In this document: positions 7,347 to 30,292 of the stretch, in pieces
How the letters are laid out: every line of letters begins with the position of its first letter
Position numbering within the stretch: position 1 is the first letter of the stretch
Assembly: GCA_963744145.1 (NCBI GenBank)
Contig: CAVUSO010000001.1
Location: 4,800,001 to 4,864,000 of the forward strand
Length of the DNA: 64,000 bases
From: an uncultured cyanobacterium
GTDB lineage: Bacteria; Cyanobacteriota; Cyanobacteriia; Cyanobacteriales; CAWUOF01
Reading direction: 5' to 3'
Position numbers and translations under genes: made by a program
Notes under the pieces: generated by a model
Told to the model about the DNA's origin: nothing
The model's database searches: none
The model's input: only the letters and a program-made list of their open reading frames with translations

Positions 7347-7737
7347 AATCCAGTTCAGTTACCCGTAGGGGCAAAGCATTTCGGCGAATAAATCATTACT
7401 GAAGTGAAGAATAATATGACCGAAATGCTTTGCCCTCACCATCTATGCAGCCAGCAGATCAACCATATAAAATACCATTCAGTTACCATCTTTTTTGGAT
7501 ATCTCGGCGCAGAAGAAGGGCGAAGCATTCGGATATAATATTAACGGATTTAAGCGATTAATTATCGCCCGAATGCTTCGCCCCTACATTTAATTGAACC
7601 GGATTTTGGATATCTCGGCGCAAAAGAAGGGCGAAGCATTCGGATATAATATTACTGGTTTGATCATTCAATTATCGCCCGAATGCTATGCCTCCGGCAC
7701 GCTACGCGATCGCCCCTACATATAACTGAACCGGATT
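7347..7737. mobile_element. composite MITE/REP element between cas7 and cas5 with three GGGC(A/G)AAGCATT(T)CGG...CCG(A)AATGCT palindromes
   Basis: TIRs AATCCAGTTCAGTTA (7347-7361) and TAACTGAACCGGATT (7723-7737); related palindromes recur near 50655, 51821, 55214 and 60009. Confidence 0.7.
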
Positions 7738-7770
7738 GAGATCAAATCTAATTACAGGAGACAAATAATA

Positions 7771-8550
7771 ATGCTTTACCATTGCATTCTAACGCTTCAC
7801 GATAATGTATTTTTTGCCACCAGGGAAATGGGGATTCTCTATGAAACTGAAAAGTATTTGCACAATTGGGCACTGAGTTTTTCTTTGTTTAAAAGTCTTT
7901 ATATTCCCCATCCCTATCGGTTACAAGGAATAGAAGCTCAAAAACCAGGTTATTTAGATGCTCGTAATGAGCAAAACTTATTCCATCTCAATAAAGAGTC
8001 TATTTATGTTTTTCCCGGTTTACCTTTGAGTTGGTCTTACCAAGTAAATACTTTCAAAGCTGCTCAAACTACTTATTATGGTAAACCTAAACAGTTTGGT
8101 GAAAAAGGAGCCGATCGCAACTATCCCGTTAATTATGGACGTGCTAAGGAATTAGCTGTTGGTAGTCAATATCGTACCTATATCATTGGTCCTGAAAAAA
8201 TATCAAAACCGATTCCCCACTGGATACGTTTGGGAAAATGGGGAGCGAAAATTAAGGTGGAAGTTATTCCTATTCCCCCTCAAGCGATCGCCCAATGTTC
8301 CGGACAATATATCTGTCAACATCCTTTAAATCCCTTAGATTTTGCTCCTCATACTAGATTACTCTTGTATAACCGCATTGTGATGCCACCTTCTAGTTTA
8401 GTTAGTCAAGCACAACTAACAGGTAATTATTGGGAAAGTACAGGTCGAGTTTGGGAAGAATTTCAATTACAACATCCAGAATTACCAAAGAGTTTTTGTT
8501 TACCGATCGGATTATCTTATGGAGCCGCTCATGTCATCTCAGTCTCTTAG
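7771..8550 (+). CDS. cas5: type I-D Cas5/Csc1
   Basis: LHDNVFFATRE, LHNWALSF, IRLGKW motifs; SD AGGAG upstream. Confidence 0.93.
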   Translation: MLYHCILTLHDNVFFATREMGILYETEKYLHNWALSFSLFKSLYIPHPYRLQGIEAQKPGYLDARNEQNLFHLNKESIYVFPGLPLSWSYQVNTFKAAQTTYYGKPKQFGEKGADRNYPVNYGRAKELAVGSQYRTYIIGPEKISKPIPHWIRLGKWGAKIKVEVIPIPPQAIAQCSGQYICQHPLNPLDFAPHTRLLLYNRIVMPPSSLVSQAQLTGNYWESTGRVWEEFQLQHPELPKSFCLPIGLSYGAAHVISVS

Positions 8551-9340
8551 TTATACTATTCATTCTTTAGTTGTTGAATTAAGTGCAGCAGAAAAAGGAT
8601 TTATGCCCTTAACCCTTGTCCGCGCAATTCATTCCCAAGTAATGACTTGGCTAAAGTTAGGATCTCCTGAAATTGCTGAAATAATTCATCAATCACAAGA
8701 ATCACCTTTAAGTTTATCAGGATTGTTAGGAAATCGTCGTGCTAATGGCACACAACTAGGCGATCGGTTTTATTTTCGGATCTGTTTGTTAGATGGAAAT
8801 TTGATGCAACCGCTTTTAAAAGGTTTTGAACAGTGGGGTACAGAACCTTTAATTTTAGCAAAGTTTCCCTTTGTGATTCGCAGTATTTATACTATGCCTG
8901 GAACCCATCGATGGGCTGGTGCAGCAGAATATCAAGTGCTGGCTAATATTCCGGTCGTTAGTAATGATTTGATCCTGAATTTTATCTCTCCTACCAGTTT
9001 TAAGAAAGGTCAGACTATTCAAGTATTTCCATTACCAGAATTAGTGTTTGGCAATTTACAAAGACGATGGAATGCGTTTGCTCCTGATGAATTAAAGTTT
9101 TCAGTTAGCGAATGGTTGGGATTAGCTTCAGCTTATGAATTGAAAACTCATGCTTTAAAGATGGAAGGGGGTGCAGAAATAGGTACTCAGGGATGGGTAA
9201 GATATCGATTTCCAGATCAGGAACAGGCGAAAATTGCAACTATTTTAGCTCATTTTGCTTTCTTTTCTGGAGTAGGACGTAAGACTTCAATGGGGATGGG
9301 GCAAACAAAATTAGAGTCGGCTCTACCAACTAATAATTAA
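8519..9340 (+). CDS. cas6: Cas6 crRNA-processing endoribonuclease
   Basis: FISPTSFK and C-terminal G-rich loop GVGRKTSMGMG. Confidence 0.95.
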   Translation: MEPLMSSQSLSYTIHSLVVELSAAEKGFMPLTLVRAIHSQVMTWLKLGSPEIAEIIHQSQESPLSLSGLLGNRRANGTQLGDRFYFRICLLDGNLMQPLLKGFEQWGTEPLILAKFPFVIRSIYTMPGTHRWAGAAEYQVLANIPVVSNDLILNFISPTSFKKGQTIQVFPLPELVFGNLQRRWNAFAPDELKFSVSEWLGLASAYELKTHALKMEGGAEIGTQGWVRYRFPDQEQAKIATILAHFAFFSGVGRKTSMGMGQTKLESALPTNN

Positions 9341-9359
9341 TCAACAGGAATCAACCAAA

Positions 9360-9950
9360 ATGAATGAACCAAATTATTTACCCTTAGCTTCTTTGAATGC
9401 TTGGGAATACTGTCCAAGACGTTTCTATTTTCAATATCAACTGGGAGAAATGGATGAGAATGAACATATTTTGATGGGGCGTTATCTGCATCGCAATATT
9501 AATGAAGAAGGTACAAGTTTAGAAGGAGATACTTTGATTCATCGTCAACAGTGGGTGTGGAGCGATCGCTTATTAGTAAATGGCATCATTGATGCAGTTG
9601 AAGAACGGGATAATCAACTGATTCCTGTGGAATATAAAAAAGGTCGCATGGCGAATCATCTTAATGATCATTTTCAAGTTTGTGCAGCGGCTTTATGTTT
9701 GGAAGAACGTACTGGACAGACGATTAATTATGGCGAAATATTCTATTACGCTAACCGTCGTCGTGAACAAGTACCATTCACATCCCAACTACGTCAATTA
9801 ACTGAAAAAGCGATCGCATCTGCTCGTGCAACAGCCGAAAAAGGCATTATGCCCGCACCAATTACTCATCCGAAAAAATGTCGAGATTGTAGTTTGCAAA
9901 GAATCTGTTTACCGAAAGAAATTCAACAATTACGCAGTGAGGTTTACTAA
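9360..9950 (+). CDS. cas4: Cas4 Fe-S nuclease
   Basis: YCPRRF, GIIDAVE..PVEYKKG RecB motif, C-terminal CRDCSLQRIC. Confidence 0.95.
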   Translation: MNEPNYLPLASLNAWEYCPRRFYFQYQLGEMDENEHILMGRYLHRNINEEGTSLEGDTLIHRQQWVWSDRLLVNGIIDAVEERDNQLIPVEYKKGRMANHLNDHFQVCAAALCLEERTGQTINYGEIFYYANRRREQVPFTSQLRQLTEKAIASARATAEKGIMPAPITHPKKCRDCSLQRICLPKEIQQLRSEVY

Positions 9951-9952
9951 AT

Positions 9953-10930
9953 ATGTCTGTTCTTTATGTAACTCAACCTGATGCTGTAGTTAGCAAAAAC
10001 TATGAAGCTTTTACTGTTGCTTTAAAGCAAGAAGATGGTTCTTGGCAAAAGCAAAGCGTACCTGCTCAAACTATCGAGCAAATGGTTTTAATCGGCAACC
10101 CTCAAGTTACTGGAGATGCTTTAATGTACGCTTTAGAATTGGGAATATCTGTACATTACCTATCTAATTTTGGAAAATATCTGGGATCGGCATTACCAGG
10201 TTATTCTCGCAACGGTCAATTACGATTAGCACAATATGGTGTTTATCAAGACAAAAATCGACGCTTAGAATTAGCAAAAGCGATCGTTACTGGGAAAATT
10301 CACAATCAATATGCCGTATTATATCGACACAACATTCGGGATAATCCCCTCAAACTAAGGGAAAAACAAGTCAAAGAACAAAACACCCTTGATGAGACGA
10401 GAGGAATGGAAGGTAAAGCAGCACAAGAATATTTTAGTTACTGGCAAGAAATGGTAGGAAATAAATGGAGTTTTAACGGTCGTCATCGTCGTCCACCTAC
10501 CGATCCAGTAAATGCTTTGTTAGGATTTGCCTATGGTTTATTGCGAGTGCAAATTACCGCTGCAATTCATCTAGCAGGACTAGATCCTTATATTGGTTAT
10601 TTGCACGAAGTAACTCGCGGTCAACCAGCAATGGTATTAGATTTAATGGAAGAATTTCGAGCTTTAATTGCTGACAATTTAATTTTATCTGTTTTGAGTC
10701 ATCAGCAGCTAAAACCAACTGATTTTAGTGAAAGTTTAGGTGCCTATCGTTTGGAAGAAAAAGGGCGGAAACTGTTTCTAGAAGCTTGGGAAACCAAAAT
10801 GAATAATGAATTCAAACACCCTACTTTTAAATATAGCTGTACCTATCGCAAATCGATTGAATTACAAGCTCGTTTACTCAGTCGTCACCTCCAAGAACAA
10901 GTTACCTATAAACCACTAACACTACGATGA
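9953..10930 (+). CDS. cas1: type I-D Cas1 integrase
   Basis: GMEGKAAQEYF, RRPPTDPVNALL, GLDPYIGYLH, DLMEEFR. Confidence 0.97.
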   Translation: MSVLYVTQPDAVVSKNYEAFTVALKQEDGSWQKQSVPAQTIEQMVLIGNPQVTGDALMYALELGISVHYLSNFGKYLGSALPGYSRNGQLRLAQYGVYQDKNRRLELAKAIVTGKIHNQYAVLYRHNIRDNPLKLREKQVKEQNTLDETRGMEGKAAQEYFSYWQEMVGNKWSFNGRHRRPPTDPVNALLGFAYGLLRVQITAAIHLAGLDPYIGYLHEVTRGQPAMVLDLMEEFRALIADNLILSVLSHQQLKPTDFSESLGAYRLEEKGRKLFLEAWETKMNNEFKHPTFKYSCTYRKSIELQARLLSRHLQEQVTYKPLTLR

Positions 10931-11220
10931 CCACCCTTTTTTACCTAGTTATTTACGACTTACCCGATACCAAAGCTGCGAATAAGCGTCGTAAGCGTTT
11001 ACACAAATTGCTTTCGGGTTATGGGAAATGGACCCAATACAGCGTTTTCGAGTTATTTTTGACAAGTATGCAATTTGTCAAGCTTCAGCAACAAATCGAA
11101 ACACTCATTCAGCCCAAAGAGGATGCAGTCAAAATCTATATATTAGATGTAGGCTCGGTGAAGCGGACAATAACTTATGGTTGTGAAAAGCCTAGACAAG
11201 ATCGAACAATCATACTATGA
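10927..11220 (+). CDS. cas2: Cas2
   Basis: YLVIYDL, WTQYSVFE; ATGA overlap with cas1. Confidence 0.97.
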   Translation: MTTLFYLVIYDLPDTKAANKRRKRLHKLLSGYGKWTQYSVFELFLTSMQFVKLQQQIETLIQPKEDAVKIYILDVGSVKRTITYGCEKPRQDRTIIL

Positions 11221-11438
11221 TGTTTCCATTGGGATTTTTGGCAAGGCGAAGCGAGGTTGAAAAACCAGGGGGTGCCGCCAAAATCTCTAGAACCTTGAAA
11301 AATCAATAGTTTTGCTCTTTTAGAGCTATCAAAAAATCGCCAAAAAGAGGTTGGGGCGATCGCTGAAATGAAGTTTTTTTGGAGACCTGCCAAAACTGCT
11401 TTTCAAAGCTAGTCCCAGTAACCCTTCTAGACCCCGCT
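11221..11438 (+). promoter_or_regulatory. CRISPR leader
   Basis: Non-coding stretch between cas2 and the first repeat with recurring GCCAAAA/TTTTGGC motifs as seen in cyanobacterial I-D leaders. Confidence 0.8.
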
Positions 11439-14400
11439 CTTTCTCAATACTGAATCCCGGTAACGGGACTGAAACGGTTAATCTGATGAACAGTTATTCA
11501 GGTAACATACCCACTTTCTCAATACTGAATCCCGGTAACGGGACTGAAACCAGTTATCGTTTGCGATGGGTTTCCGATCCTGAGATATAGCTTTCTCAAT
11601 ACTGAATCCCGGTAACGGGACTGAAACTGATCGAATTTGCTAGAAGCACTAAACCTAAATCAGCGAACTTTCTCAATACTGAATCCCGGTAACGGGACTG
11701 AAACATCGGTAGATTGTCTTATCCAATTTTTATTTATTTCTTTCTCAATACTGAATCCCGGTAACGGGACTGAAACTTAAAGAATATTGAGTTCTTAAAC
11801 TCTCATAGACCACTTTCTCAATACTGAATCCCGGTAACGGGACTGAAACTTGTTCTAGTATATTTTCTTCTAAGGAAGCCTGATAACTTTCTCAATACTG
11901 AATCCCGGTAACGGGACTGAAACTTGATAATTTTACCGATTACCAAATCTTGGTCTAACTCTTTCTCAATACTGAATCCCGGTAACGGGACTGAAACCTA
12001 CCTGTACTGCCTGCAACGGGACATATTGTCCCGTCTTTCTCAATACTGAATCCCGGTAACGGGACTGAAACGAGAAAGAGTTAACTGTATCGGGTTATGC
12101 TAGAGTACAGTACTTTCTCAATACTGAATCCCGGTAACGGGACTGAAACTGGAGGTGCAGGTATTAATCTGCAACATCGTTGTTTAACTTTCTCAATACT
12201 GAATCCCGGTAACGGGACTGAAACTCTGAAATGTCATCTAGCTTACTAGAATCCTTCAAGAAAACTTTCTCAATACTGAATCCCGGTAACGGGACTGAAA
12301 CTATAGGACTATATTTAATTTTATATATTTTACCTTCTACAGCTTTCTCAATACTGAATCCCGGTAACGGGACTGAAACCGTTAATGTAGCTACTCCAGC
12401 ACTACCTGGGAAATTTGCATCTTTCTCAATACTGAATCCCGGTAACGGGACTGAAACCTGCTACTCTATTAATACATTGATTAAAGTCTTTTTCTGCTTT
12501 CTCAATACTGAATCCCGGTAACGGGACTGAAACTTGTTATGTAACATATCATGAACTTGTTGTGCTATGGCTTTCTCAATACTGAATCCCGGTAACGGGA
12601 CTGAAACATCTTAATAACTTACATAAAGATGTATGTAGAGATTGTAAATTAGCTTTCTCAATACTGAATCCCGGTAACGGGACTGAAACGTATCAATTTC
12701 TGTCCAGTTACTACCATCAGCAGCAGGAACTGTACTAGATAATCCAAGCTTTCTCAATACTGAATCCCGGTAACGGGACTGAAACTACTAATCTAATTCT
12801 AACTTCTAATCAATATACACCTTTCTCAATACTGAATCCCGGTAACGGGACTGAAACGAGTACGAGAATTGTATGAAGATGAGAAACAAAGACTTTCTCA
12901 ATACTGAATCCCGGTAACGGGACTGAAACTATCGCCTTTATGGCAATCTGCTATGTAATATTTAATACTTTCTCAATACTGAATCCCGGTAACGGGACTG
13001 AAACTTGTAAAAGAATGTTTACAGCACTATATGAATAAAGATACTTTCTCAATACTGAATCCCGGTAACGGGACTGAAACCATAAAGAATATGGCGGAAA
13101 GTTTTTATTTAAAAAAGCAGACTTTCTCAATACTGAATCCCGGTAACGGGACTGAAACTTGGTTACAAGAAATATATGTAGAGTATGATACTTTCTCAAT
13201 ACTGAATCCCGGTAACGGGACTGAAACCCGATGTATCTCGAAGTATCAGGTAGAATTTTTCTTGATCACTTTCTCAATACTGAATCCCGGTAACGGGACT
13301 GAAACTATTAAATTCTATTACTAATATAAATAAGACGTTCTTTCTCAATACTGAATCCCGGTAACGGGACTGAAACTTGTAGGTATTTGCTCCCTGTTCC
13401 CAAGTTTGTGATCTACTTTCTCAATACTGAATCCCGGTAACGGGACTGAAACTTAATAATATTTCATTATCCAACCTACGTTGGATTACTCTTTCTCAAT
13501 ACTGAATCCCGGTAACGGGACTGAAACGCTAATACTACTTGGTTAACTCCTAGTAATCGTACTATCTTTCTCAATACTGAATCCCGGTAACGGGACTGAA
13601 ACTACCGTCAGCTCTATAGGGCTTATTTCTCAATGTAGACTTTCTCAATACTGAATCCCGGTAACGGGACTGAAACAAATCTAAACATACATAAATATGG
13701 TTTAATTCTTCTTCTTTCTCAATACTGAATCCCGGTAACGGGACTGAAACTTTATTATTTATAAGAGAAACTACATATACTAAACAACGTCTTTCTCAAT
13801 ACTGAATCCCGGTAACGGGACTGAAACTTTCTAGTTCACAGTTTTCTACGAACCATTGTTTTAACTTTCTCAATACTGAATCCCGGTAACGGGACTGAAA
13901 CCATAAATTTGGTATCCCTACTAATCCTAAACATTGGCTTTCTCAATACTGAATCCCGGTAACGGGACTGAAACTACAAATCCCCAATATGCCTCCTGTA
14001 TATCCAGGTCTTTCTCAATACTGAATCCCGGTAACGGGACTGAAACTCTAAATAATCCGCCAATTCATCAGTAGAGATTTGACTTTCTCAATACTGAATC
14101 CCGGTAACGGGACTGAAACACATTAAAACTCCTGCGGGTTGACAAGATGTCTGTAACTTACTTTCTCAATACTGAATCCCGGTAACGGGACTGAAACTAT
14201 AACAATAGGTATCTATATTCTCTATAGAATCTATACTTTCTCAATACTGAATCCCGGTAACGGGACTGAAACTAACAGGTTTAAAGCATCACTAACTTTG
14301 GCGTAAAGCTTTCTCAATACTGAATCCCGGTAACGGGACTGAAACAAATATTCCTATTAAATCTATTAAATTTATAGATAACTTTCTCAATACTGAATCC

Positions 14401-17400
14401 CGGTAACGGGACTGAAACTGTTGTTCAGTCATACATATACGGAAATTACTTAGGACTTTCTCAATACTGAATCCCGGTAACGGGACTGAAACTTAGATTC
14501 GACGGAAATAACGCTAGGGTGATAACGGCTTTCTCAATACTGAATCCCGGTAACGGGACTGAAACAACTCTAAGTGTACGTTATGGTTTAATCGTATAGT
14601 TAACTTTCTCAATACTGAATCCCGGTAACGGGACTGAAACCTTACTAACGATACTGTTGTAAAATTGCGTTTTAAAAACTTTCTCAATACTGAATCCCGG
14701 TAACGGGACTGAAACCAATATTGATTGTACAAAAAGTTTGTATTATATCAACTTTCTCAATACTGAATCCCGGTAACGGGACTGAAACCAGGACTTATTT
14801 CTAAATCTATACATAGTAGATCAGACTTTCTCAATACTGAATCCCGGTAACGGGACTGAAACGATCAGGATAATTTCTTAACTGCCATTTAAGGACAGTT
14901 CTAGAGCTTTCTCAATACTGAATCCCGGTAACGGGACTGAAACACACTCTAACCCGTCAACCTTAAACCACAAGGAAAACTTTCTCAATACTGAATCCCG
15001 GTAACGGGACTGAAACTAACCACCTACTGTTGTTTTAGGAGATAACGTAAATCTCACTTTCTCAATACTGAATCCCGGTAACGGGACTGAAACTTAGACA
15101 ACATAACAAACTCCTTGATCATTGTGCTTTCTCAATACTGAATCCCGGTAACGGGACTGAAACGATTTATAAGAGTTTAAATAAACTCCAGATAACCCTA
15201 CTTTCTCAATACTGAATCCCGGTAACGGGACTGAAACTGAAAGAACAAAGTATGTGTTCATCACCAATCATGATGCTTTCTCAATACTGAATCCCGGTAA
15301 CGGGACTGAAACTCTACCTATTCTTTTATTAAGATAGAGAGCAAGATAGCTTTCTCAATACTGAATCCCGGTAACGGGACTGAAACAAGTGAATTGTTTT
15401 TAATCCGTCTTTTGTAGGTTGATCCTTTCTCAATACTGAATCCCGGTAACGGGACTGAAACTACGCTGAACTGTTCCAAACAACAGAACAAGAAACTTTC
15501 TCAATACTGAATCCCGGTAACGGGACTGAAACAATGTATTATAAAAAGCTAGTTCTTCTAAACTTGTCATAGCTTTCTCAATACTGAATCCCGGTAACGG
15601 GACTGAAACTCTCAAAATACTTATGTGCTTTTTGTTTTAATAGCTTTCTCAATACTGAATCCCGGTAACGGGACTGAAACGTGCAATACCATAATGATGT
15701 TTTCCTACCTAGTACTTTCTCAATACTGAATCCCGGTAACGGGACTGAAACTATCATGATCTAGAGATAGAAGAATTAAATAATCATCTTAACAGCTTTC
15801 TCAATACTGAATCCCGGTAACGGGACTGAAACGAGAAGAACAAACAAAACAAAACACCAACTAAGGAGATTACAGCTTTCTCAATACTGAATCCCGGTAA
15901 CGGGACTGAAACCTAGAGTTATCAATTAATCCCATAGTAGATAAAGGCTTTCTCAATACTGAATCCCGGTAACGGGACTGAAACGTCTTATTTCATTCCT
16001 TCTAGAATCCAAATAATCTGGACTTTCTCAATACTGAATCCCGGTAACGGGACTGAAACTTATCCAATGCAGATGTTATATGGTCTATTATCCAGCGCTT
16101 TCTCAATACTGAATCCCGGTAACGGGACTGAAACGTAGCCATCAATGCAATGGATAAAACGCAACCAACTACTTTCTCAATACTGAATCCCGGTAACGGG
16201 ACTGAAACATAAGAAACTTTAGAAAAAACAGTCAACATAACTAACTTTCTCAATACTGAATCCCGGTAACGGGACTGAAACAATCGCGTTGATAGAGAAC
16301 ATTGGCACAATTTCTAACTTTCTCAATACTGAATCCCGGTAACGGGACTGAAACAGCAATAATTATCCTTGTCGCGTTTGCCTTTAGAGCCGCTTTCTCA
16401 ATACTGAATCCCGGTAACGGGACTGAAACCTTCCCTACAAAATCTTCGATTCCTAATAGCCCTCGGCTCTTTCTCAATACTGAATCCCGGTAACGGGACT
16501 GAAACCTAATAAAGTTGGCCAGATTGGTTCCAACCTCTTGCTTTCTCAATACTGAATCCCGGTAACGGGACTGAAACCTGTTAATATTGGAGAGTTAACT
16601 GTATCGGGTTATGCCCGCTTTCTCAATACTGAATCCCGGTAACGGGACTGAAACAAGAAACATATCTATGTATATACATGGATATAAATATAGCTTTCTC
16701 AATACTGAATCCCGGTAACGGGACTGAAACGCATTATTATTAAATTCCATTTTGTAAGGGCGTTCCCTGGGGACTTTCTCAATACTGAATCCCGGTAACG
16801 GGACTGAAACTCCAGAAAAAATACTAAGTGCGGATAATTATAGCCACTTTCTCAATACTGAATCCCGGTAACGGGACTGAAACTCGACCTGTGCAAACAA
16901 GTCGGCCAACTCATCGCCTGCGCTTTCTCAATACTGAATCCCGGTAACGGGACTGAAACAAATAATCACTACCTCCAAAATTAGGGTCAATCCCTGCAAT
17001 ATAAGTGTTGCCTGGAAATGGTTGCAGCCAAGTCCCGCTTTCTCAATACTGAATCCCGGTAACGGGACTGAAACGCTTTCAAAAATGGATATCGGTAAGA
17101 TGGATTGAAAAATCTTTCTCAATACTGAATCCCGGTAACGGGACTGAAACCTAATTGGATTTCTTGCTCCTCAATCCACCGACTTTCTCAATACTGAATC
17201 CCGGTAACGGGACTGAAACTCTTATAATCTATCTTTGTTATTCACAAACTCAGATCTTTCTCAATACTGAATCCCGGTAACGGGACTGAAACTCTATAGA
17301 TCTGATAAGAGATTGATATCTAAGATCATGACTTTCTCAATACTGAATCCCGGTAACGGGACTGAAACAATCTCTGTAGTTGGTAGTAGCTGAGTTCTAC

Positions 17401-20400
17401 ATTATTAGCTTTCTCAATACTGAATCCCGGTAACGGGACTGAAACTCTGATCTATAGCTACATATATTAGATTGTTATGGGTTCTTTCTCAATACTGAAT
17501 CCCGGTAACGGGACTGAAACAACAATACTGGATCATGCAAGACCGACAAGAAAAAACAGCTTTCTCAATACTGAATCCCGGTAACGGGACTGAAACTTGA
17601 GAAAGCTTCGCTTCGGTGACTGGGTTAAAATTGTGCGATCTTTCTCAATACTGAATCCCGGTAACGGGACTGAAACATGAAATAGTTAGTATTCTTATTC
17701 TGAGATAAGAACTTTCTCAATACTGAATCCCGGTAACGGGACTGAAACGATTCAGAAGCTCGTAAATTGGGGTCTTTGGTATCACTTTCTCAATACTGAA
17801 TCCCGGTAACGGGACTGAAACTATAATTTTTATTTTTCTTTGCCCTAAAGGGGAATAATTCTTTCTCAATACTGAATCCCGGTAACGGGACTGAAACCGG
17901 AAATTATCTAGAAAATTAGTGTGATTCAAATCTTTCTCAATACTGAATCCCGGTAACGGGACTGAAACGATTTTTTCTATGAGGATAAGAACAGCGAGAG
18001 TTCTGCTTTCTCAATACTGAATCCCGGTAACGGGACTGAAACTTTTATACGCCATCGATGATAAATGCACCTATAGCTGCTTTCTCAATACTGAATCCCG
18101 GTAACGGGACTGAAACATTAATATCCCTAGCTGTTTCTTTTTGAAATTAGCTTCTTTCTCAATACTGAATCCCGGTAACGGGACTGAAACTTTTCAAGCT
18201 CCCACTCACGGAAAACTTCTTTTCTCTGCTTTCTCAATACTGAATCCCGGTAACGGGACTGAAACATTACCAAAACGAACGGCCCGAACTGGATGCTGAA
18301 CTCTTTCTCAATACTGAATCCCGGTAACGGGACTGAAACTTTCCCTGCAACCCAAGCATTAATGGTTACTTCAGGAACTTTCTCAATACTGAATCCCGGT
18401 AACGGGACTGAAACTTTGTACGGTCCATATTTTATGTTTTTCGTTCCATGCTTTCTCAATACTGAATCCCGGTAACGGGACTGAAACATTCAGATATTGT
18501 ATTGCAATAAATCAATCTGTAGCTGCTTTCTCAATACTGAATCCCGGTAACGGGACTGAAACCACTACCCACGGTCTTAACCCAGACACAGCAAGCATCT
18601 TTCTCAATACTGAATCCCGGTAACGGGACTGAAACAATCTGGGAATGACATTTCAACTAGGTCTGACGGATCGGCTACTTTCTCAATACTGAATCCCGGT
18701 AACGGGACTGAAACATTCTGCCTTGCAACCACGGGCTTGAGCTAAAAGACTTTCTCAATACTGAATCCCGGTAACGGGACTGAAACGAAGATTGGCTCAG
18801 GAAGCGAATGAAATTTCATAGGTTTCAGTCCCGCTTTCTCAATACTGAATCCCGGTAACGGGACTGAAACTGCCCACGATACTACCCACACTACCCACGA
18901 TCATTTTGACTTTCTCAATACTGAATCCCGGTAACGGGACTGAAACTTTTTATTAGAAATATAGATTTGTTTGAAACGTTGGCTTTCTCAATACTGAATC
19001 CCGGTAACGGGACTGAAACAAGAGCAGATTTTTACCCAAATTGCCTATGACGACTTTCTCAATACTGAATCCCGGTAACGGGACTGAAACAATAATTCTT
19101 CTACTTGACAAACATGGTAAGGTGGTGCTTTCTCAATACTGAATCCCGGTAACGGGACTGAAACTTTTACAGCTAACGTTTCCCCAGTTAATTTAGTTTC
19201 TGACTTTCTCAATACTGAATCCCGGTAACGGGACTGAAACCCGTCCTTATTTAGCTGTACTGGGAGGGAGTTTTTTGACAGCTTTCTCAATACTGAATCC
19301 CGGTAACGGGACTGAAACGCTTGAACTGGGGTAGCAGTAACGGTAATTGGAGGCTTTCTCAATACTGAATCCCGGTAACGGGACTGAAACGATTGTTAAT
19401 CGCGATCGCACCTACTGATCGAAACGGCTTTCTCAATACTGAATCCCGGTAACGGGACTGAAACCTGCTCAAATAGTTTTTGATTTAACCAAATTTATTA
19501 GCCTTTCTCAATACTGAATCCCGGTAACGGGACTGAAACCCAATATAATGCCTTTAAATCCTACTGTAAAACCTAGTCTTTCTCAATACTGAATCCCGGT
19601 AACGGGACTGAAACTTATCTTTTTTATATACAATTCGGACTGGTTGTGACGGCTTTCTCAATACTGAATCCCGGTAACGGGACTGAAACTTTTCCTTGCT
19701 GTTTAAGGTTGACGGGTTAGAGTGACTTTCTCAATACTGAATCCCGGTAACGGGACTGAAACACATCACAATTATCCCATAAATGACAAAACCCATCCTA
19801 CTTTCTCAATACTGAATCCCGGTAACGGGACTGAAACAATTAATCTTAACTAAGAACGAGAACGACTAAAGCTTTCTCAATACTGAATCCCGGTAACGGG
19901 ACTGAAACAAATAAAATCTTTGCTTGCAACTAAAAAGTTAAACTCCTTTCTCAATACTGAATCCCGGTAACGGGACTGAAACTATTACCTTTACTAGAGA
20001 AGTATGGTATACACCTCTTTCTCAATACTGAATCCCGGTAACGGGACTGAAACCCTTTCTGTTGTATCCAAAACAGAAAACAATCTAGTCCTTTCTCAAT
20101 ACTGAATCCCGGTAACGGGACTGAAACTCCTGACTGCCATTGTTCTGAGGGTGAGTTTTTTGATCTTTCTCAATACTGAATCCCGGTAACGGGACTGAAA
20201 CATTTCATCATAATCAATGTACTGCCAACCATTGTCAGCTTTCTCAATACTGAATCCCGGTAACGGGACTGAAACAAATCTTGTTTGGTAGTCATTTGTC
20301 TTGTCCTGCGTCTTTCTCAATACTGAATCCCGGTAACGGGACTGAAACATGACACGAGAACCATCGGGTTCTCCGCCTTTTATTCCTTTCTCAATACTGA

Positions 20401-23400
20401 ATCCCGGTAACGGGACTGAAACTTTATATTGTCGCAAAGGGGCAGGAAACTCCAGTCCGGGCTTTCTCAATACTGAATCCCGGTAACGGGACTGAAACGA
20501 GAAAATTTAGGAGCAAAAAATGAGATTAGAAGCCTTTCTCAATACTGAATCCCGGTAACGGGACTGAAACTTCAGATTTAGTAAACGACTGCTGAATAAG
20601 TCCCAACTTTCTCAATACTGAATCCCGGTAACGGGACTGAAACAATATAACCAGATCAGCAATGATCTGGTTTTTTAATCTTTCTCAATACTGAATCCCG
20701 GTAACGGGACTGAAACTATCTATATTATATAGTTACTAGGGATTCTCTGAAGTAACTTTCTCAATACTGAATCCCGGTAACGGGACTGAAACTTGCTGGG
20801 CTGATATTGTTTATCGTCAATGTACTGATTCTGCTTTCTCAATACTGAATCCCGGTAACGGGACTGAAACTAACAGAAATGATGCGATCGCACGCCCGCG
20901 AAATTTGCTTTCTCAATACTGAATCCCGGTAACGGGACTGAAACTGGTTTATACTTATGATCATAAACCACAAGAACGGATGCACTTTCTCAATACTGAA
21001 TCCCGGTAACGGGACTGAAACCACTAAATGAACAAGAGGGAATAGAATACTCACCCATCTTTCTCAATACTGAATCCCGGTAACGGGACTGAAACTTCTA
21101 CAATCTGGCTCGACACAACTTTGCTAAAGACTTTCACTACTTTCTCAATACTGAATCCCGGTAACGGGACTGAAACATATCTATAGACGGATATTCCCCA
21201 GACCATCTGGCTTGTCAACTTTCTCAATACTGAATCCCGGTAACGGGACTGAAACTTTATTAATTCATCTCTAAAAGATATAATCTCTAATCTTTCTCAA
21301 TACTGAATCCCGGTAACGGGACTGAAACGTTATTAAGTTCTTCTACATCTAGATCATGATATACATCTTTCTCAATACTGAATCCCGGTAACGGGACTGA
21401 AACTATACATCTATACCATCGATACTAGATATAGATGCTTTCTCAATACTGAATCCCGGTAACGGGACTGAAACAAGGTTAGTTATATAATATAGGTTCG
21501 AGTCCTATACTACTTTCTCAATACTGAATCCCGGTAACGGGACTGAAACTTTTTATATAGTTTGTATAGATTCACCAACAATGGATGCTTTCTCAATACT
21601 GAATCCCGGTAACGGGACTGAAACCGATTGAGTTTTTTGCCAGAAAAGATAAAAAGCTTTCTCAATACTGAATCCCGGTAACGGGACTGAAACATCCTTT
21701 TTAGTATCTATATTTTTACATAGGTAATCTTTCTCAATACTGAATCCCGGTAACGGGACTGAAACATTATATAAAAGTAAAAGATCCATTAGCGTGGACG
21801 CCTTTCTCAATACTGAATCCCGGTAACGGGACTGAAACTATTAACAACGTCAATAATAGAAATCCTTAACTACTTTCTCAATACTGAATCCCGGTAACGG
21901 GACTGAAACTTAGATGTTTTCTTATCCCTAGGCGGTATTCCCGCCACTTTCTCAATACTGAATCCCGGTAACGGGACTGAAACAATTATTTAGGAGACAG
22001 TTTATGAACCCCATTCCACTTTCTCAATACTGAATCCCGGTAACGGGACTGAAACTTGGACGGAAACATTCCCACTTCAATCGTTGAACTGAACTTTCTC
22101 AATACTGAATCCCGGTAACGGGACTGAAACGATTTTTGCCAGATTGGTCGGATCTTATCCGCCTCGCTTTCTCAATACTGAATCCCGGTAACGGGACTGA
22201 AACTTCCCAAGGAGTGGAAAACCGAGGAGCTGTAAAGCCAACTTTCTCAATACTGAATCCCGGTAACGGGACTGAAACTTTCGATTAATTCTGGATCATG
22301 TTCAGGAACTCGACTTTCTCAATACTGAATCCCGGTAACGGGACTGAAACACAGTGCCAAATGATGCTCCTAGCCACAATTCACCCACCTTTCTCAATAC
22401 TGAATCCCGGTAACGGGACTGAAACCCCCCAAAACCGGGGGATAGGATAGAATATTCATGTCCTTTCTCAATACTGAATCCCGGTAACGGGACTGAAACT
22501 TGAGAAAATAAATTCTTATCGGTTGATCAGAGAAGAACTTTCTCAATACTGAATCCCGGTAACGGGACTGAAACGACCCACAAAATTCGCTATTTTTGCG
22601 AAGGTTGCCACTTTCTCAATACTGAATCCCGGTAACGGGACTGAAACTCGTATGGCTTAAGTTGGCTAGATTCATTCCTTTCCAACTTTCTCAATACTGA
22701 ATCCCGGTAACGGGACTGAAACTCCAGGCCAATTGATTTTGCTAAATATTCCAAAGAAACATCTTTCTCAATACTGAATCCCGGTAACGGGACTGAAACC
22801 GGATTGTTGCACTACTGGCGCAGGTTGTGGTGGATGGCTTTCTCAATACTGAATCCCGGTAACGGGACTGAAACCAATGAAACGGCTCAATACTCTTTGG
22901 ATAAATTTACCGACTTTCTCAATACTGAATCCCGGTAACGGGACTGAAACTTGTGCGAGCGGTTTTGTTGGTAGTAGTCATTGTCTTTCTCAATACTGAA
23001 TCCCGGTAACGGGACTGAAACTATTTTTTTATAGTTCTTGTTTTAAGAGAAAATTGAGCTTTCTCAATACTGAATCCCGGTAACGGGACTGAAACTTACC
23101 AATCGGCGATCGCCCATCCGTACTCAAAGCAAGCTTTCTCAATACTGAATCCCGGTAACGGGACTGAAACATACACAGTAATCGTTACAGCGATTTTAAA
23201 AAAACTTTCCGACTTTCTCAATACTGAATCCCGGTAACGGGACTGAAACAACAGCAGAAGAATGTTGTCTTCTCATTAATGAAGCCGCTTTCTCAATACT
23301 GAATCCCGGTAACGGGACTGAAACTCGAACGATGTAACTATAGCCTTTTCGCTGTAAAAACTTTCTCAATACTGAATCCCGGTAACGGGACTGAAACGCA

Positions 23401-23631
23401 TCTTGGCTTAACGTTCTTGAAAACATTACTTCATCATTACTTCTTTCTCAATACTGAATCCCGGTAACGGGACTGAAACTATGCGTCTTTGTCGTCCAAA
23501 GACCACTGCTTACGGTCAGACTTTCTCAATACTGAATCCCGGTAACGGGACTGAAACTTCTTCCATCTACTCCATCTCCGTTAACTTTGCAGCACTTTCT
23601 CAATACTGAATCCCGGTAACGGGACTGAAAC
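11439..23631 (+). CRISPR. type I-D CRISPR array, repeat CTTTCTCAATACTGAATCCCGGTAACGGGACTGAAAC (37 nt), about 163 repeats / 162 spacers (manual count)
   Basis: Direct repeats with TCCCG-GTAA-CGGGA hairpin and GAAAC 3' end; spacers mostly 32-47 nt with outliers of 59 and 78 nt; no repeat variant seen by eye. Confidence 0.99.
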
Positions 23632-24297: not shown

Positions 24298-25414
24298 ATG
24301 GTTAGAAAAAGCAGATGGTTTCGATTTTGCTGGGCAAGCAGCACTTTCCTGTATTTTAACAGTCGTAGTCAGTGCTTGTGTTGTCCAGAAACAAAATGGG
24401 CCAAATACAAGTGCGAGTGGAACACCAACAACTGCTCCTAGTAGTGCTGCTGCGGGAAGTGCTATTACAGTCTACACTGCTTTAGAAGATGACCAACTTG
24501 GTAAATACTTACCCTTATTTCAAAAAGTTCATCCAGAAATAAAAATTAACAAAGTTAGAGATTCTACCGGAGTAGTTACAGCGAAACTATTAGCAGAAAA
24601 AGAAAACCCTCAAGCAGATGTAGTTTGGGGACTAGCAGTTTCTAGTTTATTAGTTGCGGATCAACAAGGAATGTTAGAACCCTATGCTCCCCAAGGACTA
24701 GAAGCTGTTGGTGCTAAGTTTAAAGATGAACGTACTCCTCCCCATTGGGTAGGAATTGATGCGTGGATGTCTGCATTTTGTGTCAATACAAAAGAAATGC
24801 AAAAGAAAAATTTACCCATTCCCCAGTCTTGGGATGATCTAACCAAACCAGACTATAAAGGGATGATTGTAATGTCGAATCCAGCATCCTCTGGGACAGG
24901 TTTTCTCTCGGTTTCTGCACTTTTACAAATGAAGGGAGAAAAAGCAGGTTGGGATTACCTTGATGCGTTAGATAAAAATGTAGCTCAATATGTGCATTCA
25001 GGTTCCAAACCTTGCAAAATTGCTGGTTCAGGGGAATATCCCATTGGTATTTCTTTTGATTACCGAGCTGTAAAACAAAAGAATGATGGAGAACCCATTG
25101 AAGCAGTGTTCCCGAAAGAAGGATCAGGATGGGATATTGAAGCTAATGCTTTAGTGAAGAAAAGTACCATTAATCCAGCTGCAAAAACATTCTTAGATTG
25201 GGCGATTTCCCCAGAAATAACTAAATTATATGCCGAATCATATCCAGTAACTGCGTTGAAAAGCGGTGTACCAATTCCCAAAGGATATCCAGAAGATCCG
25301 GTGAAACAATTGAGCGAAAAGAATGATTTTAATTGGGCTGCTAAAAATCGTGAAGCAATTTTAACTGAGTGGACTAAACGCTACGACTCTAAGTCAGAAC
25401 CGAAGAAGAGTTAA
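24298..25414 (+). pseudogene. 2-aminoethylphosphonate-type ABC transporter substrate-binding lipoprotein with a +1 frameshift in the signal peptide
   Basis: GAGGAAG SD and ATG 24298 give [10 protein letters not shown]; the mature frame ([17 protein letters not shown] lipobox, [33 protein letters not shown]) is one base off and has no own start before 24671. Confidence 0.75.
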
Positions 25415-25434
25415 TCATCATATCGGAGTTTTCC

Positions 25435-26631
25435 ATGACTAATTCATCTGACGATCTGACAATTGAGCGGGATGAGCGATCGCACCAACCAACCCCAATT
25501 AAACCAGGTGCAGGAACACCACCAGCGATCGCACCCTTATCACCTAATGAAGGGGTTGAACCTTATCTCCAAATCGATAACATTCACAAAAACTTCGGTC
25601 AATTTGTCGCTCTTCGAGATATTTATCTTCATGTTTATCCGGGAGAATTTGTCTGTTTACTCGGTCCGAGCGGTTGTGGTAAAACTACCTTACTCCGAAT
25701 TATTGCTGGATTAGAACAGCAAAATACTGGTCGGATTATTCAAGGGGGAAAAGATATTTCTCGTCTACCCCCAGCAAAAAGAGATTTTGGAATTGTGTTC
25801 CAATCCTATGCGCTGTTTCCCAATTTAACCGCTGCGGAAAATATTGCTTATGGACTACAAAATGCCCAACTCCCTAAACCAGAGATTGAAACTAGAGTTA
25901 AGGAACTATTAGCGAAAGTAGGACTAGAGGGATTCGGTCCTAAATATCCTGCTCAAATGTCTGGTGGTCAACAACAAAGGATTGCTCTAGCTCGAGCTTT
26001 AGCTCTATCACCAGGACTATTGTTATTAGATGAACCCTTATCAGCTTTAGACGCAAAAGTTAGAGTCAAATTGAGAACTGAGATTACCAAACTCCAAAAA
26101 CAGTTAGGAGTCACTACTATTATGGTAACTCATGATCAAGCTGAAGCTCTAGCAATGGCTGATCGAATTGTAGTAATGGATCGGGGATATATTGCTCAAA
26201 TTGGTACACCGCGATCGGTTTACCAACACCCAAATACTCCTTTCGTCGCTAACTTTATTGGGGTGATGAATTTCATTCCTGGAGTAGTAGTTAGCGACGA
26301 AGAAGTACGATGTGGCAATATTTGCTTAAAAACTCCTCCCACCGATCTAACACCTGATACTAAGGTAAAAGTGGCAATTCGTCCTGAAGATATCAACGCT
26401 TTCAATTCAACTGACGACACCACCAATTTCCCTAATGTATTAACGACAGAAATAGAAGGAATTGAATTTCTTGGATCGGTTTATCAACTAGCTCTACGTC
26501 CAGATGGAGATGCAAAAGAACAGTTGATCTGTGAAGTGTCAATCCATGAAGCTCGTGATCTGGATTTAGCTCCCAACACTTCTTTAAAGATTCAATTACC
26601 AACCGAATTAATTCGCGTCTTCCCTGACTAA
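25435..26631 (+). CDS. aminophosphonate ABC transporter ATP-binding protein (PhnT-like)
   Basis: GPSGCGKT, MSGGQQQR, LLLLDEPLSALD; TOBE-like C-terminus; operon context. Confidence 0.9.
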   Translation: MTNSSDDLTIERDERSHQPTPIKPGAGTPPAIAPLSPNEGVEPYLQIDNIHKNFGQFVALRDIYLHVYPGEFVCLLGPSGCGKTTLLRIIAGLEQQNTGRIIQGGKDISRLPPAKRDFGIVFQSYALFPNLTAAENIAYGLQNAQLPKPEIETRVKELLAKVGLEGFGPKYPAQMSGGQQQRIALARALALSPGLLLLDEPLSALDAKVRVKLRTEITKLQKQLGVTTIMVTHDQAEALAMADRIVVMDRGYIAQIGTPRSVYQHPNTPFVANFIGVMNFIPGVVVSDEEVRCGNICLKTPPTDLTPDTKVKVAIRPEDINAFNSTDDTTNFPNVLTTEIEGIEFLGSVYQLALRPDGDAKEQLICEVSIHEARDLDLAPNTSLKIQLPTELIRVFPD

Positions 26632-26637
26632 ATTATT

Positions 26638-28404
26638 ATGACTCCATCAACCTCACCCCTAGTCCAACGGTTGTTTCCCAAAAAGATCAACCATGTCATC
26701 ACCCGTGAAGACTGGATTATGATCGCTTTGCTGGTTTTGGGAATGCTGTTTTTATTAGTGGGAATCGTTTTTCCCCTGTATCCAATTATTGTACGGAGTT
26801 TGCAAGATACCGATGGTAATTGGGTGGGATTGACGAATTATCAAAAATATCTCAGTACACCAGCTCTCACTACTTCCTTATTCAACACCTTTTTCATGTC
26901 AATTGTGACAGCGGTAATTTCAGTAGTCTTAGGTTTTATTTATGCTTATGCTCTTACTAGAACTGCAATGAGTGGTAAATTTGTCTTCCGATTACTGGGG
27001 ATTTTACCTTTATATATTCGTCCCATTGCTAATGCGATCGGACTGCAATATCTATTCGGGAATAAGGGTTTGGTGACTGAGGGACTTTTGGGAATCTTAC
27101 CAGGTTGGAATATTGGACTTTATGGACTACATGGAATTGTGATGGGTGAATTTCTCAACTGCTTTCCCCAAGCAGTAGTGATTTTAACCACAGCCTTAAG
27201 TCTAACTGATGCTAGACTTTATGAAGCAGCAGAATCTCTCCGAACTCATCCCCTCCGGACTTTTTTTACCATTACAATTCCTAGTGTAAAGTTTGGGTTA
27301 ATTAATACTATTTTCGTTTGTTTTATTGTTGCATTTACTGACTTTGGTGTACCTAAAGTAGTTGGGGGAGACTTTAATGTTTTAGCGATCGAAGTTTATA
27401 AGCAAGTAATTGGACAACAGAACTTTTCTATGGGAGCGACAATTAGTGTATTCCTCCTCTTACCAACAGTTTTTGCTTTTATTATCGATCGCATTCTCCA
27501 ACGTCGTCAAACTGCGCTAGTTAGTGCCAAATCAGTTCCCCTCCAACCAAAACCAAATCCGACTGTAGATTGGTTAATGTTTGTAGTTTGTTCTGTGATT
27601 GCTGGATTTGGTTTGATTGTATTCTTAACTGTGATCATGGCATCTTTTGTTAAAGTTTGGCCCTATGACTTCAGTTTAACTTTCAAACATTACGATTTTA
27701 GCACAGCTGGGGGTGGTGGATATGAAGCCTATTGGAACAGTATCCAAATGTCACTTTATACAGCAATTTTTGGCACGATCGCGGTTTTTGTAGGTGCTTA
27801 TTTAGTCGAAAAAGCCAAAGGTTTTCAATGGTTACGATTAATTAACTATTTCCTTTCCACTCTTCCGCTAGCTCTCCCAGGTCTAGTATTAGGGTTAGGA
27901 TATGTGTTCTTTTTCAATAAACCATTATGGCCAATTCCAGGTACAGATTTTTCCCTAGTTAATCCCTTTAATTGGATTTATAGCACCATGACAATCCTTG
28001 TGCTGTGTAATATTATTCACTTTTACACAGTCTCTTTTCTCACGGGGACAACTACTCTCAAACAAATTGATCCAGAATTTGAAGCAGTTTCTGCTTCCAT
28101 GAGAGTTCCCTTTTACAAAACTTTTTGGCGCGTTACTGTACCTTTATCTGTACCAGCAATTTTGGAAATTGGCATTTATTATTTTATTAATTCAATGGTG
28201 ACAATTTCCGCTTTAATCTTCATTTATCCACCTAGTATTCCTCTCGCTTCTGTTGCTATTATCAACATGGATGATGCGGGAGATGTTGCTCCAGCAGCAG
28301 CTATGTCTACTTTGGTAATTGCTACCAGTATTGGGGTGCGACTACTTTACTCATTTTTCACCAGAGGATTGTATCAACGCACTCAAGCATGGCTAAAACG
28401 TTAA
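26638..28404 (+). CDS. aminophosphonate ABC transporter fused double permease
   Basis: Two EAA-loop motifs (LYEAAESL, FEAVSASM), many TM segments, FTDFGVPKVVGG. Confidence 0.9.
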   Translation: MTPSTSPLVQRLFPKKINHVITREDWIMIALLVLGMLFLLVGIVFPLYPIIVRSLQDTDGNWVGLTNYQKYLSTPALTTSLFNTFFMSIVTAVISVVLGFIYAYALTRTAMSGKFVFRLLGILPLYIRPIANAIGLQYLFGNKGLVTEGLLGILPGWNIGLYGLHGIVMGEFLNCFPQAVVILTTALSLTDARLYEAAESLRTHPLRTFFTITIPSVKFGLINTIFVCFIVAFTDFGVPKVVGGDFNVLAIEVYKQVIGQQNFSMGATISVFLLLPTVFAFIIDRILQRRQTALVSAKSVPLQPKPNPTVDWLMFVVCSVIAGFGLIVFLTVIMASFVKVWPYDFSLTFKHYDFSTAGGGGYEAYWNSIQMSLYTAIFGTIAVFVGAYLVEKAKGFQWLRLINYFLSTLPLALPGLVLGLGYVFFFNKPLWPIPGTDFSLVNPFNWIYSTMTILVLCNIIHFYTVSFLTGTTTLKQIDPEFEAVSASMRVPFYKTFWRVTVPLSVPAILEIGIYYFINSMVTISALIFIYPPSIPLASVAIINMDDAGDVAPAAAMSTLVIATSIGVRLLYSFFTRGLYQRTQAWLKR

Positions 28405-28420
28405 TCAGGGAAGGTGTTCT

Positions 28421-29149
28421 ATGGTAATGATTAAATTAGTTGTTTTCGATATGGCTGGTACAACGGTTAAAGATGAACGAGAAGTAGAAAAATGTTTTTT
28501 TACTGCTGCGGAAAGGACTGATTTAACCGCTAGTTCTGAAAAAGTTGTAGCGATGATGGGATTACCGAAAAAAGTCGTGTTCCAAACCCTGTGGGATGAC
28601 CAAATTGGGAAAAATCATCCTAGTTATGCAACCAAGGTGGAAACTTCTTTTGCCGCATTTAAAGACATTTTAGAAAATCATTATCGCACCGAACCAATTA
28701 CACCAACGGAGGGTTGTTTAGAAATATTCACATGGTTAAAATCCCAGGGTATTAAAATTGCTCTGACTACAGGATTCTATCGACAAGTTACAGATATTAT
28801 CCTCGATCGCTTAGGTTGGAGTCAGGGATTAAATAGTGAATATATTGGTTCAGAACAGTCAATTATCCAAATGTCTGTGACACCTTCAGAGATTTTTAAA
28901 GAAGAGGGTCGTCCGGCACCTTACATGATTCAAAAAGCCATGTATAGTCTCGGAATTATTGACTCAAAAAACGTTGTCACGCTCGGCGATACCCCCTCCG
29001 ATCTCCAAGCTGGAATTAATGCAAATTGTCTTTATTCCTTTGGAATTACCAACGGTACTCATACCAAAGCCCAATTAACTCTACATCCTAATGATGGTTT
29101 ATTTAGTTGTTTGTCAGAATTTCAAACACATTTAGCTGGGTTGTTGTAA
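28421..29149 (+). CDS. phosphonatase (PhnX)-like HAD hydrolase
   Basis: VVFDMAGTTV motif I, MGLPK cap motif, GRPAPYMI, GDTPSDLQAG. Confidence 0.8.
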   Translation: MVMIKLVVFDMAGTTVKDEREVEKCFFTAAERTDLTASSEKVVAMMGLPKKVVFQTLWDDQIGKNHPSYATKVETSFAAFKDILENHYRTEPITPTEGCLEIFTWLKSQGIKIALTTGFYRQVTDIILDRLGWSQGLNSEYIGSEQSIIQMSVTPSEIFKEEGRPAPYMIQKAMYSLGIIDSKNVVTLGDTPSDLQAGINANCLYSFGITNGTHTKAQLTLHPNDGLFSCLSEFQTHLAGLL

Positions 29150-29155
29150 ACCACT

Positions 29156-30292
29156 ATGAGTCAAACATATCACTCGGAAGTTGCTATAGTTGGAGCCGGA
29201 ATTGTAGGTCTAGCTCATGCTTTAGCCGCAGCTAAAAAAGGAGCTAAAGTAACAGTATTCGATCGCCATCCGATCGCAATCGGTGCATCAATCCGCAATT
29301 TTGGTATGGTTTGGCCCATTGGTCAACCTACGGGAAAACTGCTCGATCGAGCTTTGCGATCGCGACAAATTTGGACTGAACTATCTGCTCAAGTCGGGTT
29401 TCATGCTGATCCCTGTGGTTCTTTACATCTAGTTTATAATCAAGATGAATTAGATGTCTTAGAAGAGTTTGTCGAAACTCGACAGGAACATCAATATGCG
29501 ATCGCTCTTCTCAAACCTGAGCAGGTAGCTGAAAAAAGTGCTGGAGCTGTAGTTCAGGGATTACTGGGAGCATTATGGAGTGGGACAGAAGTAATAGTTG
29601 ATCCTCGAGAAGCGATCGGCAAAATTCCTGATTTTTTACATCAAGAATATGGAGTGGAATTCCAGTTTAACACTGCGGTTACTCATATTTCCTATCCCAA
29701 CTTTATCGCTGGGGGAGAAAATTGGACTTGTGAGCGACTTTATGTATGTAGTGGAGCGGATTTTGAAACTCTTTATCCCAAAATTTATCAGGAAAGTGGG
29801 ATTACCAAAGTTAAATTGCAAATGCTCAGAACTAGACCTCAACCAAATTTTTGGAGATTAGGTCCTGCACTCTGTGCTGGTTTAACTCTTACCCATTATA
29901 CTGCATTTGCCCATTGTCAATCCCTAACTAAGTTAAAAACCAGAATTCAAACCGAAACTCCTTATTTTGTTGACTGGGGAATTCATGTTATGGTTTCCCA
30001 AAACAACACAGGAGAATTAACTATTGGTGATACCCATGAATATGGTTTAAATCTCGATCCTTTTGATCGAAATGATTTGAACCAATATATCCTCAATTAC
30101 TTTCAATCTTTTGCCAAAGTTCCTGCTCTAGAAATCGCTCAAACTTGGCACGGGATCTACGCCAAAATTCCTCAGAAAACTGAATTAGTAGTTCATCCAG
30201 AACCAGGAGTAACAATTATTAATGCTCTCGGAGGTGCAGGAATGACTCTATCCTTTGGTTTAGCTGAGGAAGTTATGACAATGGAGTCATAA
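29156..30292 (+). CDS. phosphonate-cluster FAD-dependent oxidoreductase (TIGR03364-like, DAO family)
   Basis: VGAGIVGLAHA, GASIRNFGMVWPIGQ, KLQMLRT, IGDTHEY, GGAGMTLSFGLAE. Confidence 0.85.
   Translation: MSQTYHSEVAIVGAGIVGLAHALAAAKKGAKVTVFDRHPIAIGASIRNFGMVWPIGQPTGKLLDRALRSRQIWTELSAQVGFHADPCGSLHLVYNQDELDVLEEFVETRQEHQYAIALLKPEQVAEKSAGAVVQGLLGALWSGTEVIVDPREAIGKIPDFLHQEYGVEFQFNTAVTHISYPNFIAGGENWTCERLYVCSGADFETLYPKIYQESGITKVKLQMLRTRPQPNFWRLGPALCAGLTLTHYTAFAHCQSLTKLKTRIQTETPYFVDWGIHVMVSQNNTGELTIGDTHEYGLNLDPFDRNDLNQYILNYFQSFAKVPALEIAQTWHGIYAKIPQKTELVVHPEPGVTIINALGGAGMTLSFGLAEEVMTMES

Follow-up and report, generated by a model that had tools for sequence, protein, structure and literature searches.

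A type I-D CRISPR spacer ending in the reversed end of its own repeat: a probable natural capture from repeat-bearing DNA in an uncultured cyanobacterium

The window analyzed here, a 64,000-nt stretch of the chromosome of an uncultured cyanobacterium (contig CAVUSO010000001.1, positions 4,800,001 to 4,864,000), contains a complete type I-D locus in which the cas genes (1200-11220), a leader, and a CRISPR array follow one another on the forward strand. The products of cas3′, the type I-D helicase gene (1200-3308; TIGR03158), cas10d (3319-6249; TIGR03174), cas7/csc2 (6300-7292; TIGR03157), cas5/csc1 (7771-8550; TIGR03159), cas4 (9360-9950; TIGR00372), cas1d (9953-10930; TIGR04093), and cas2 (10927-11220; TIGR01573) all scored above the NCBIfam cut-offs, and that of cas6 (8519-9340; TIGR01877, E 6e-15) fell just below, with 56.2 bits against a cut-off of 58.65. 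Judging from the I-D family models, the genes and the repeat type point to a cyanobacterium. The 218-nt leader (11221-11438) resembles that found before two other arrays of the same repeat family; type I-D leaders are reported to measure 202-220 bp (PMC10212523). The array itself (11439-23631) comprises 163 identical 37-nt repeats and 162 spacers with a median length of 37 nt, and Rfam searches returned sub-threshold CRISPR repeat matches only. Directly after the array lies a cluster for phosphonate uptake and catabolism (24671-33808), with a PhnS2/T2/U2-like transporter, a phosphonatase-like hydrolase, an FAD oxidoreductase, and an HD oxygenase. A 28-nt tandem repeat is present in seven copies at 55314-55565.

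The chromosome is a single 7.63-Mb contig, and the assembly is 96.3% complete. Two sister arrays of the same repeat family were located near 860 kb and 2336 kb (211 and 130 repeats), both of which are broken by inserts (800 and 564 nt in the first and 1122 nt in the second). Several spacers overlap between arrays of the family on opposite strands, from which it follows that the arrays have sampled the same invaders. Six more arrays with other repeats bring the genome to nine arrays and 790 spacers.

Spacer 98 of the 162 spacers of the type I-D array (18787-18833) is 47 nt long and lies between two intact repeats, at 18750-18786 and 18834-18870. A sequence-only reading had described it as a composite, and this build was borne out: a unique, PAM-proximal part of 35 nt (18787-18821), for which the searches below found no source, is followed, at the PAM-distal end, by the exact reverse complement of the last 12 nt of the repeat (18822-18833, minus strand; repeat positions 26-37). 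The junction between the two parts coincides exactly with the last base of the repeat, and the 3′ end of the spacer reads CCG, with C at -3 and G at -1. A perfect 12-bp palindrome was read directly from the unique part at 18808-18819. The two sister arrays carry the same 12 nt in their repeats, and because this piece is common to all three arrays, it is not assignable to any one of them.

Among the 498 spacer-sized units of the three arrays, only spacer 98 matches its own repeat over at least 12 nt, the runner-up reaching 10 nt. Its length is unusual but not unique, given that 12 of the 498 units measure at least 45 nt, two spacers of this very array (59 and 78 nt) among them. Spacers of 35 nt are common (48/498). 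The over-long spacers at 12690-12748 (59 nt) and 16960-17037 (78 nt) carry repeat remnants of at most 7 nt. The latter, the last 7 nt of which match the same repeat in reverse, was considered as a second case and set aside, its end being within the range of other spacers and fitting the 3′-end preference described below. One of its frames, which we had presumed to be terminase-like, drew no support from PHROGs or from tblastn against phages.

The sequence-only reading had also called for a survey of similar cases, and the build was found to recur in unrelated arrays. A pattern consisting of a repeat end and, 22-52 nt further on, its reverse complement matched 20 loci in genome contigs, 43 in metagenome contigs, and none in viral contigs; a 20-50-nt version matched the present genome and one other among 401 genomes of the phylum. 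The 65 survey loci divided into 31 palindromic elements outside arrays and 34 loci within arrays, and the latter into 13 inversions, fold-backs, or instances of hairpin perfection and 21 (16 distinct spacers) that share the build of spacer 98, with the next repeat intact. Two more were added by shorter-gap searches, one (L074; 17 + 18 nt) from 401 genomes of the order and one (L075; 12 + 23 nt) from 144 genomes of another family, giving 18 distinct spacers of this build, spacer 98 included. Sixteen of these are of normal length (34-40 nt; for example, L033/L055, with a tail of 12 nt and a total of 35 nt), and two are over-long, spacer 98 (47 nt) and L003 (57 nt), a profile biased by the main pattern, which is blind to unique parts shorter than 22 nt and to tails shorter than 11 nt. 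Most of the parallel cases stem from metagenome contigs and from CRISPR systems of untyped kind.

Agreement with the repeat extends beyond what the pattern required. Of the bases past the 11 demanded, 16 of 20 match the repeat of the spacer's own array (P 6e-6 by hand count, with only the first extra base counted for L003). Twelve of the 16 main-survey spacers match their own repeat up to the last base of the spacer and four differ; over all 18 spacers, the captured repeat variant is unlike that of the host array in six. In three cyanobacterial cases with long overlaps (L003, L074, and L075), the captured repeat is foreign to the host array and is present only once in the assembly, which shows that capture from other repeat-bearing DNA happens. 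The tail of L003 is similar (86% over 36 nt, E 0.03) to the repeat of a Nostoc plasmid array that lies next to cas6, and in viral contigs it was found at a single site that is not an array. Plasmid searches with L074 and L075 gave no relevant match. The unique part of L004, another cyanobacterial case, is single-copy in its genome.

Four of the metagenome spacers (L030, L032/L052, L049, and L066), from arrays with one 30-nt repeat, have donor strands that read as the repeat end, a short A-rich stretch, and GGAGGTG, and one of the four shows an ATG after this motif. A ribosome-binding motif thus lies within 8 nt after the repeat end in 4 of the 18 cases, compared with 12 of 292 array positions, a number that includes these cases. 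Viral scans for their donors gave 0 and 5 matches, none of which fitted. In spacer 98, the donor strand has an ATG 2 nt after the repeat end, with the frame open to the end of the spacer. The four spacers suggest elements in which genes are preceded by a repeat end, and a mobile element with a CRISPR repeat end fused to a gene start may be entertained as the donor of spacer 98, although we regard this as rather unlikely. If true, such spacers would be a natural record of hosts immunizing against viral repeat mimics, and the four ribosome-site spacers would point to elements, as yet unseen, in which a Cas6-cleavable repeat end precedes the genes.

Given these numbers, it can be asked whether spacer 98 is an ordinary long spacer from coding DNA that ends in this 12-mer by accident. 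In a shuffle test covering two of the three arrays, any repeat 12-mer anywhere in 288 shuffled spacers was met with P 0.017. The probability of finding precisely this 12-mer at the end of a spacer is 9e-5 to 7e-4 for the 498 spacers of this genome, the upper value making use of the seven copies of the 12-mer that lie outside arrays. These seven copies occur within coding stretches for S-F-S-P-D-G, which we take from the motif to be WD40-like, and they lend the accidental origin some substance. So do the viral matches of a related motif, three of five being tRNA-like or coding DNA of non-CRISPR kind by our own reading, and the two of six frames that are open across spacer 98; a scan of very many arrays will, moreover, meet accidents. 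The frame of spacer 98 that yields F-S-P, however, has a stop four codons upstream, and the expected frequency of such ends is 0.02-0.14 per 100,000 spacers, well below the two full-match cyanobacterial cases observed (spacer 98 and L004), on the assumption of ∼1e5 such spacers in the collection, 201 genomes of the order having given ∼15,200 matches to the motif. A chance origin is considered very improbable.

The inversions and fold-backs among the survey loci (13 of the 34 in arrays) establish that products of assembly error or of replication template switching at the repeat hairpin exist. One locus (L018, 611-742) reads repeat, spacer, reversed whole repeat, reversed spacer, and repeat inside an array, and is either an assembly fold-back or a real inverted duplication. 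In another (L037), the reverse complement of a repeat's end takes the place of its first 13 nt, which yields a perfect palindrome and looks like a quasi-palindrome template switch. Spacer 98 differs from such products in that the repeats on either side of it are complete, the array's 163 repeats are all identical, neither junction shows microhomology, and no second copy of the 35 nt is seen in either orientation, unlike in the fold-back loci L018 and L021. Together with the recovery of the chromosome as one contig, this makes an origin by error or template switch very unlikely.

The 3′ ends of spacers in this genome are not random. Across the three I-D arrays, C occupies position -3 in 41% of 498 spacers, against a background of 19% (P 1e-28), and is avoided at -1 (9%); the same 3′-end bias has been published for type I-B (PMC5416893). 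The end of spacer 98, with C at -3 and a purine at -1, conforms to this preference. Cut at 12 nt, it scores 3.0, which is near the top of the 35 possible cuts in the reversed repeat and is equalled or exceeded by 19% of the 497 other spacers. A CCC run in the reversed repeat places C at -3 for tails of 11, 12, and 13 nt. Because the end agrees with the preference, the break at nt 12 needs no special mechanism. In the survey arrays, the bias was weaker than in this genome (36% versus 25% in 145 spacers and 29% versus 22% in 125 spacers), which counts against the capture reading favored below, as do the biased length profile of the survey and the mostly metagenomic, untyped origin of the parallel cases.

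The end signature also bears on the possibility, raised by the sequence-only reading, that the 35 nt are a complete, normal-length spacer that was recycled or flipped. A total of 35 and 12 nt would equally result from a normal spacer to which a tag had been added, which counts against one continuous capture. If the 35 nt had been a former complete spacer, however, its 3′ end would have scored 0.25, against the 3.0 observed for the whole. In addition, the third 5′ base of spacer 98 is A rather than G, so that the mark of flipped spacers described for type I-B, a bias and not a rule, is absent (PMC5416893). The possibility found no support on these grounds. A combined slip and flip from a GTA in the repeat loop, 1 nt upstream of the 12-mer, was demoted to a minor variant of flipping, given that the end signature argues against a flip.

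Another route by which normal spacer and tag could be joined is an aborted integration. Here, a 35-nt prespacer would be attached to the spacer-side end of the bottom strand of the repeat, released together with 12 repeat bases by a cut at the hairpin loop, and re-integrated in reversed orientation. The junction in spacer 98 is exactly what strand transfer on the spacer side would yield under the I-D model (PMC10212523), the 12-nt break sits at the edge of the hairpin loop of the repeat, and the unique part has a common spacer length. Half-site disintegration is reported to be frequent in vitro in a type II system (PMC8390005). Tails of 11-13 nt were also seen in 14 of the 16 survey cases, against 10.3 expected under uniform cuts (P 0.019). 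This excess is no longer significant when C is weighted 1.5-2.8-fold (P 0.07-0.30), and hairpin cutting as the cause of the 11-13-nt tails is accordingly weakened once the preference for C at -3 is allowed for. The disfavored end of the 35 nt as a former spacer is a further difficulty, as are the 6 of 18 parallel cases with another repeat variant, which an aborted integration cannot make, and the literature search yielded no published demonstration of such a product.

A forward control, in which a repeat end is followed by a second forward copy within 24 nt, was run on 401 genomes and gave 20 matches in 15 of them. Sixteen of the matches, spread over 12 sites, consist of the final 12-14 repeat bases copied again in tandem, a point in favor of the aborted-integration scheme; the remaining four are longer partial repeats or apparent coding DNA. 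The 12 sites (L079-L088, L090, and L094-L098) are solitary, degenerate, or terminal cyanobacterial repeats, often with two or more extra copies, which start at or within the hairpin loop, and the sole site inside an array belongs to an irregular one of five repeats, a setting that weighs against this scheme. A forward counterpart of spacer 98, that is, a forward repeat piece within a spacer of a regular array, was not found in the 401 genomes, the numbers being too small for any claim of orientation bias. On balance, we consider the aborted-integration route improbable.

The spacer was searched for in other arrays and in mobile elements, as the sequence-only reading had proposed, and the searches did not disclose a donor. 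With up to 9 mismatches allowed, the 35 nt occur in their own genome once, in spacer 98 itself, so no source unit of the kind expected at a Pyrococcus-type hotspot was found in an array of the same genome. The best match to the 35 nt among the 790 spacers of the nine arrays is 10 nt. They were absent from the sole other genome of the family and, at up to 3 mismatches, from 400 other genomes of the order. An exact 24-mer from the 35 nt had no match in contigs of viral, genome, or metagenome collections. Phage and plasmid records gave only partial blastn matches (best E 0.3 and 0.06, respectively), and no protospacer beside a full repeat was matched in viral contigs, phages, or plasmids. The collections searched may omit the records closest to this genome. 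A degenerate array with a related 37-nt repeat was noted on a 79.6-kb viral contig (L070), none of the spacers in the part of it inspected being like spacer 98.

The proposal of the sequence-only reading that the adaptation machinery captured a repeat-end junction is the best reading of these data, and we consider it likely that Cas4-Cas1-Cas2 acquired, in its ordinary way, a long minus-strand protospacer from repeat-bearing DNA. In this scheme, the I-D Cas4-Cas1-Cas2 complex would take an over-long protospacer from the minus strand of DNA bearing the 3′ end of this repeat family. Capture would start at a GTN PAM, presumed to lie in the DNA following the repeat, run 35 nt back to the repeat, and end after 12 nt of the latter, at a point that offers C at -3 and a purine at -1, as the complex prefers. 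The 47 nt would then be integrated in normal orientation. Among the units now present in the arrays, 42 of 497 have a GT-containing PAM at the required distance, and since long spacers arise anyway in this system, 47 nt fits the long end of its range. The scheme does call for a donor with a repeat and for an over-long spacer, each of them uncommon, and as the searches disclosed no donor, the PAM and an unbroken 47-nt protospacer are presumed.

Three kinds of donor share the likelihood of this capture roughly evenly: an own array unit that has since disappeared, a foreign array (on a mobile element or other DNA entering the cell), and a solitary repeat mimic. If the donor was an own unit, a PAM-compliant spacer would presumably attack its source, selecting for deletion of the latter; spacer 98 is harmless now because its seed end matches nothing in the genome. 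By analogy with the repeat units and mini-arrays described on phages and plasmids (PMC10651486, PMC11656645), a foreign donor would be as plausible as an own unit.

Effects of the tail on the precursor RNA were explored by prediction. The duplex of the 12 nt with a flanking repeat end has a predicted energy of -20.1 kcal/mol, compared with -8.1 kcal/mol for the repeat hairpin, and the predicted pairing is possible with either flanking repeat end, spanning the Cas6 site, which in Synechocystis lies between G29 and A30 (PMC5741207). In unit-by-unit folds at 37 °C, the hairpin of the upstream repeat has a predicted probability of 0.79 (25th lowest of 161; 0.99 without the 12 nt; array median, 0.95), and that of the downstream repeat 0.27 (5th lowest of 161). 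When only the two repeats are folded, a long helix to the upstream repeat is predicted with a probability of ∼0.77. The earlier expectation that the 12 nt pair with the preceding repeat end thus stands in silico, but in the unit-by-unit folds it is the downstream hairpin that suffers more. The tail is therefore predicted to weaken one of the flanking Cas6 hairpins. Four other repeats of the array fold worse, which implies that the array tolerates a weak downstream hairpin. Mature Synechocystis CRISPR1 crRNAs are reported to be 39 and 45 nt long with an 8-nt handle (PMC3575380), and by analogy the mature crRNA of spacer 98 would keep at most 2 of the 12 nt, leaving a near-normal guide.

On the best reading, spacer 98 is a capture of a kind known from laboratory assays that has become fixed in nature, and alone it matters little. 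The class is more useful: any collection of arrays can be mined for spacers whose terminus is a reversed repeat end, and those with a sufficiently long overlap reveal repeats absent from the host assembly, providing a record of arrays, mini-arrays, or repeat mimics on unsequenced elements. Full-text searches, mainly of open papers, brought up no description of naturally fixed spacers of this kind as a class.

In gene set, leader length, repeat architecture, and variable spacer length, the present locus is like the Cas4-Cas1-Cas2 adaptation system described for Synechocystis type I-D (PMC5896167, PMC10212523), in the model of which Cas4 trims the PAM end (GTN) and the non-PAM end is joined on the leader side. 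Spacers of that system have a mode of 35 nt and a spread of 5-6 nt, compared with the 47 nt of spacer 98. A preference for C at -3 is on record for type I-B (PMC5416893) and had no counterpart statement in the I-D literature consulted; its measurement here extends the type I-B observation to a type I-D system. In Synechocystis CRISPR1/2, adjoining spacers are reported to sequester the repeat hairpin and prevent cleavage (PMC5741207); the competitor in the present array is a perfect 12-nt complement of the repeat end, with an effect that is predicted only. Solitary repeat units (Racrs) and virus mini-arrays bring host-type repeats onto phage or plasmid DNA (PMC10651486, PMC11656645) and are plausible donors; unlike in those cases, no such element with the flank of spacer 98 was found, and 12 nt are too few to type the donor.

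The closest parallels are with capture from arrays themselves. In Pyrococcus furiosus, which has a Cas4 system, minus-strand protospacers are enriched downstream of the first spacer at arrays (PMC5737086), and a protospacer hotspot is reported near the E. coli CRISPR array (PMC10011333). Like the Pyrococcus protospacers, spacer 98 contains minus-strand DNA of array type, its 12-nt reversed repeat end starting at the last base of the repeat. The Pyrococcus and E. coli spacers, however, were newly acquired in the laboratory and their source remains in the genome, whereas spacer 98 is fixed in mid-array in a type I-D system, is over-long, and has a source that was not found. Capture from arrays is already known, and on the best reading spacer 98 is an instance of a rare but recurring, largely known kind of event.
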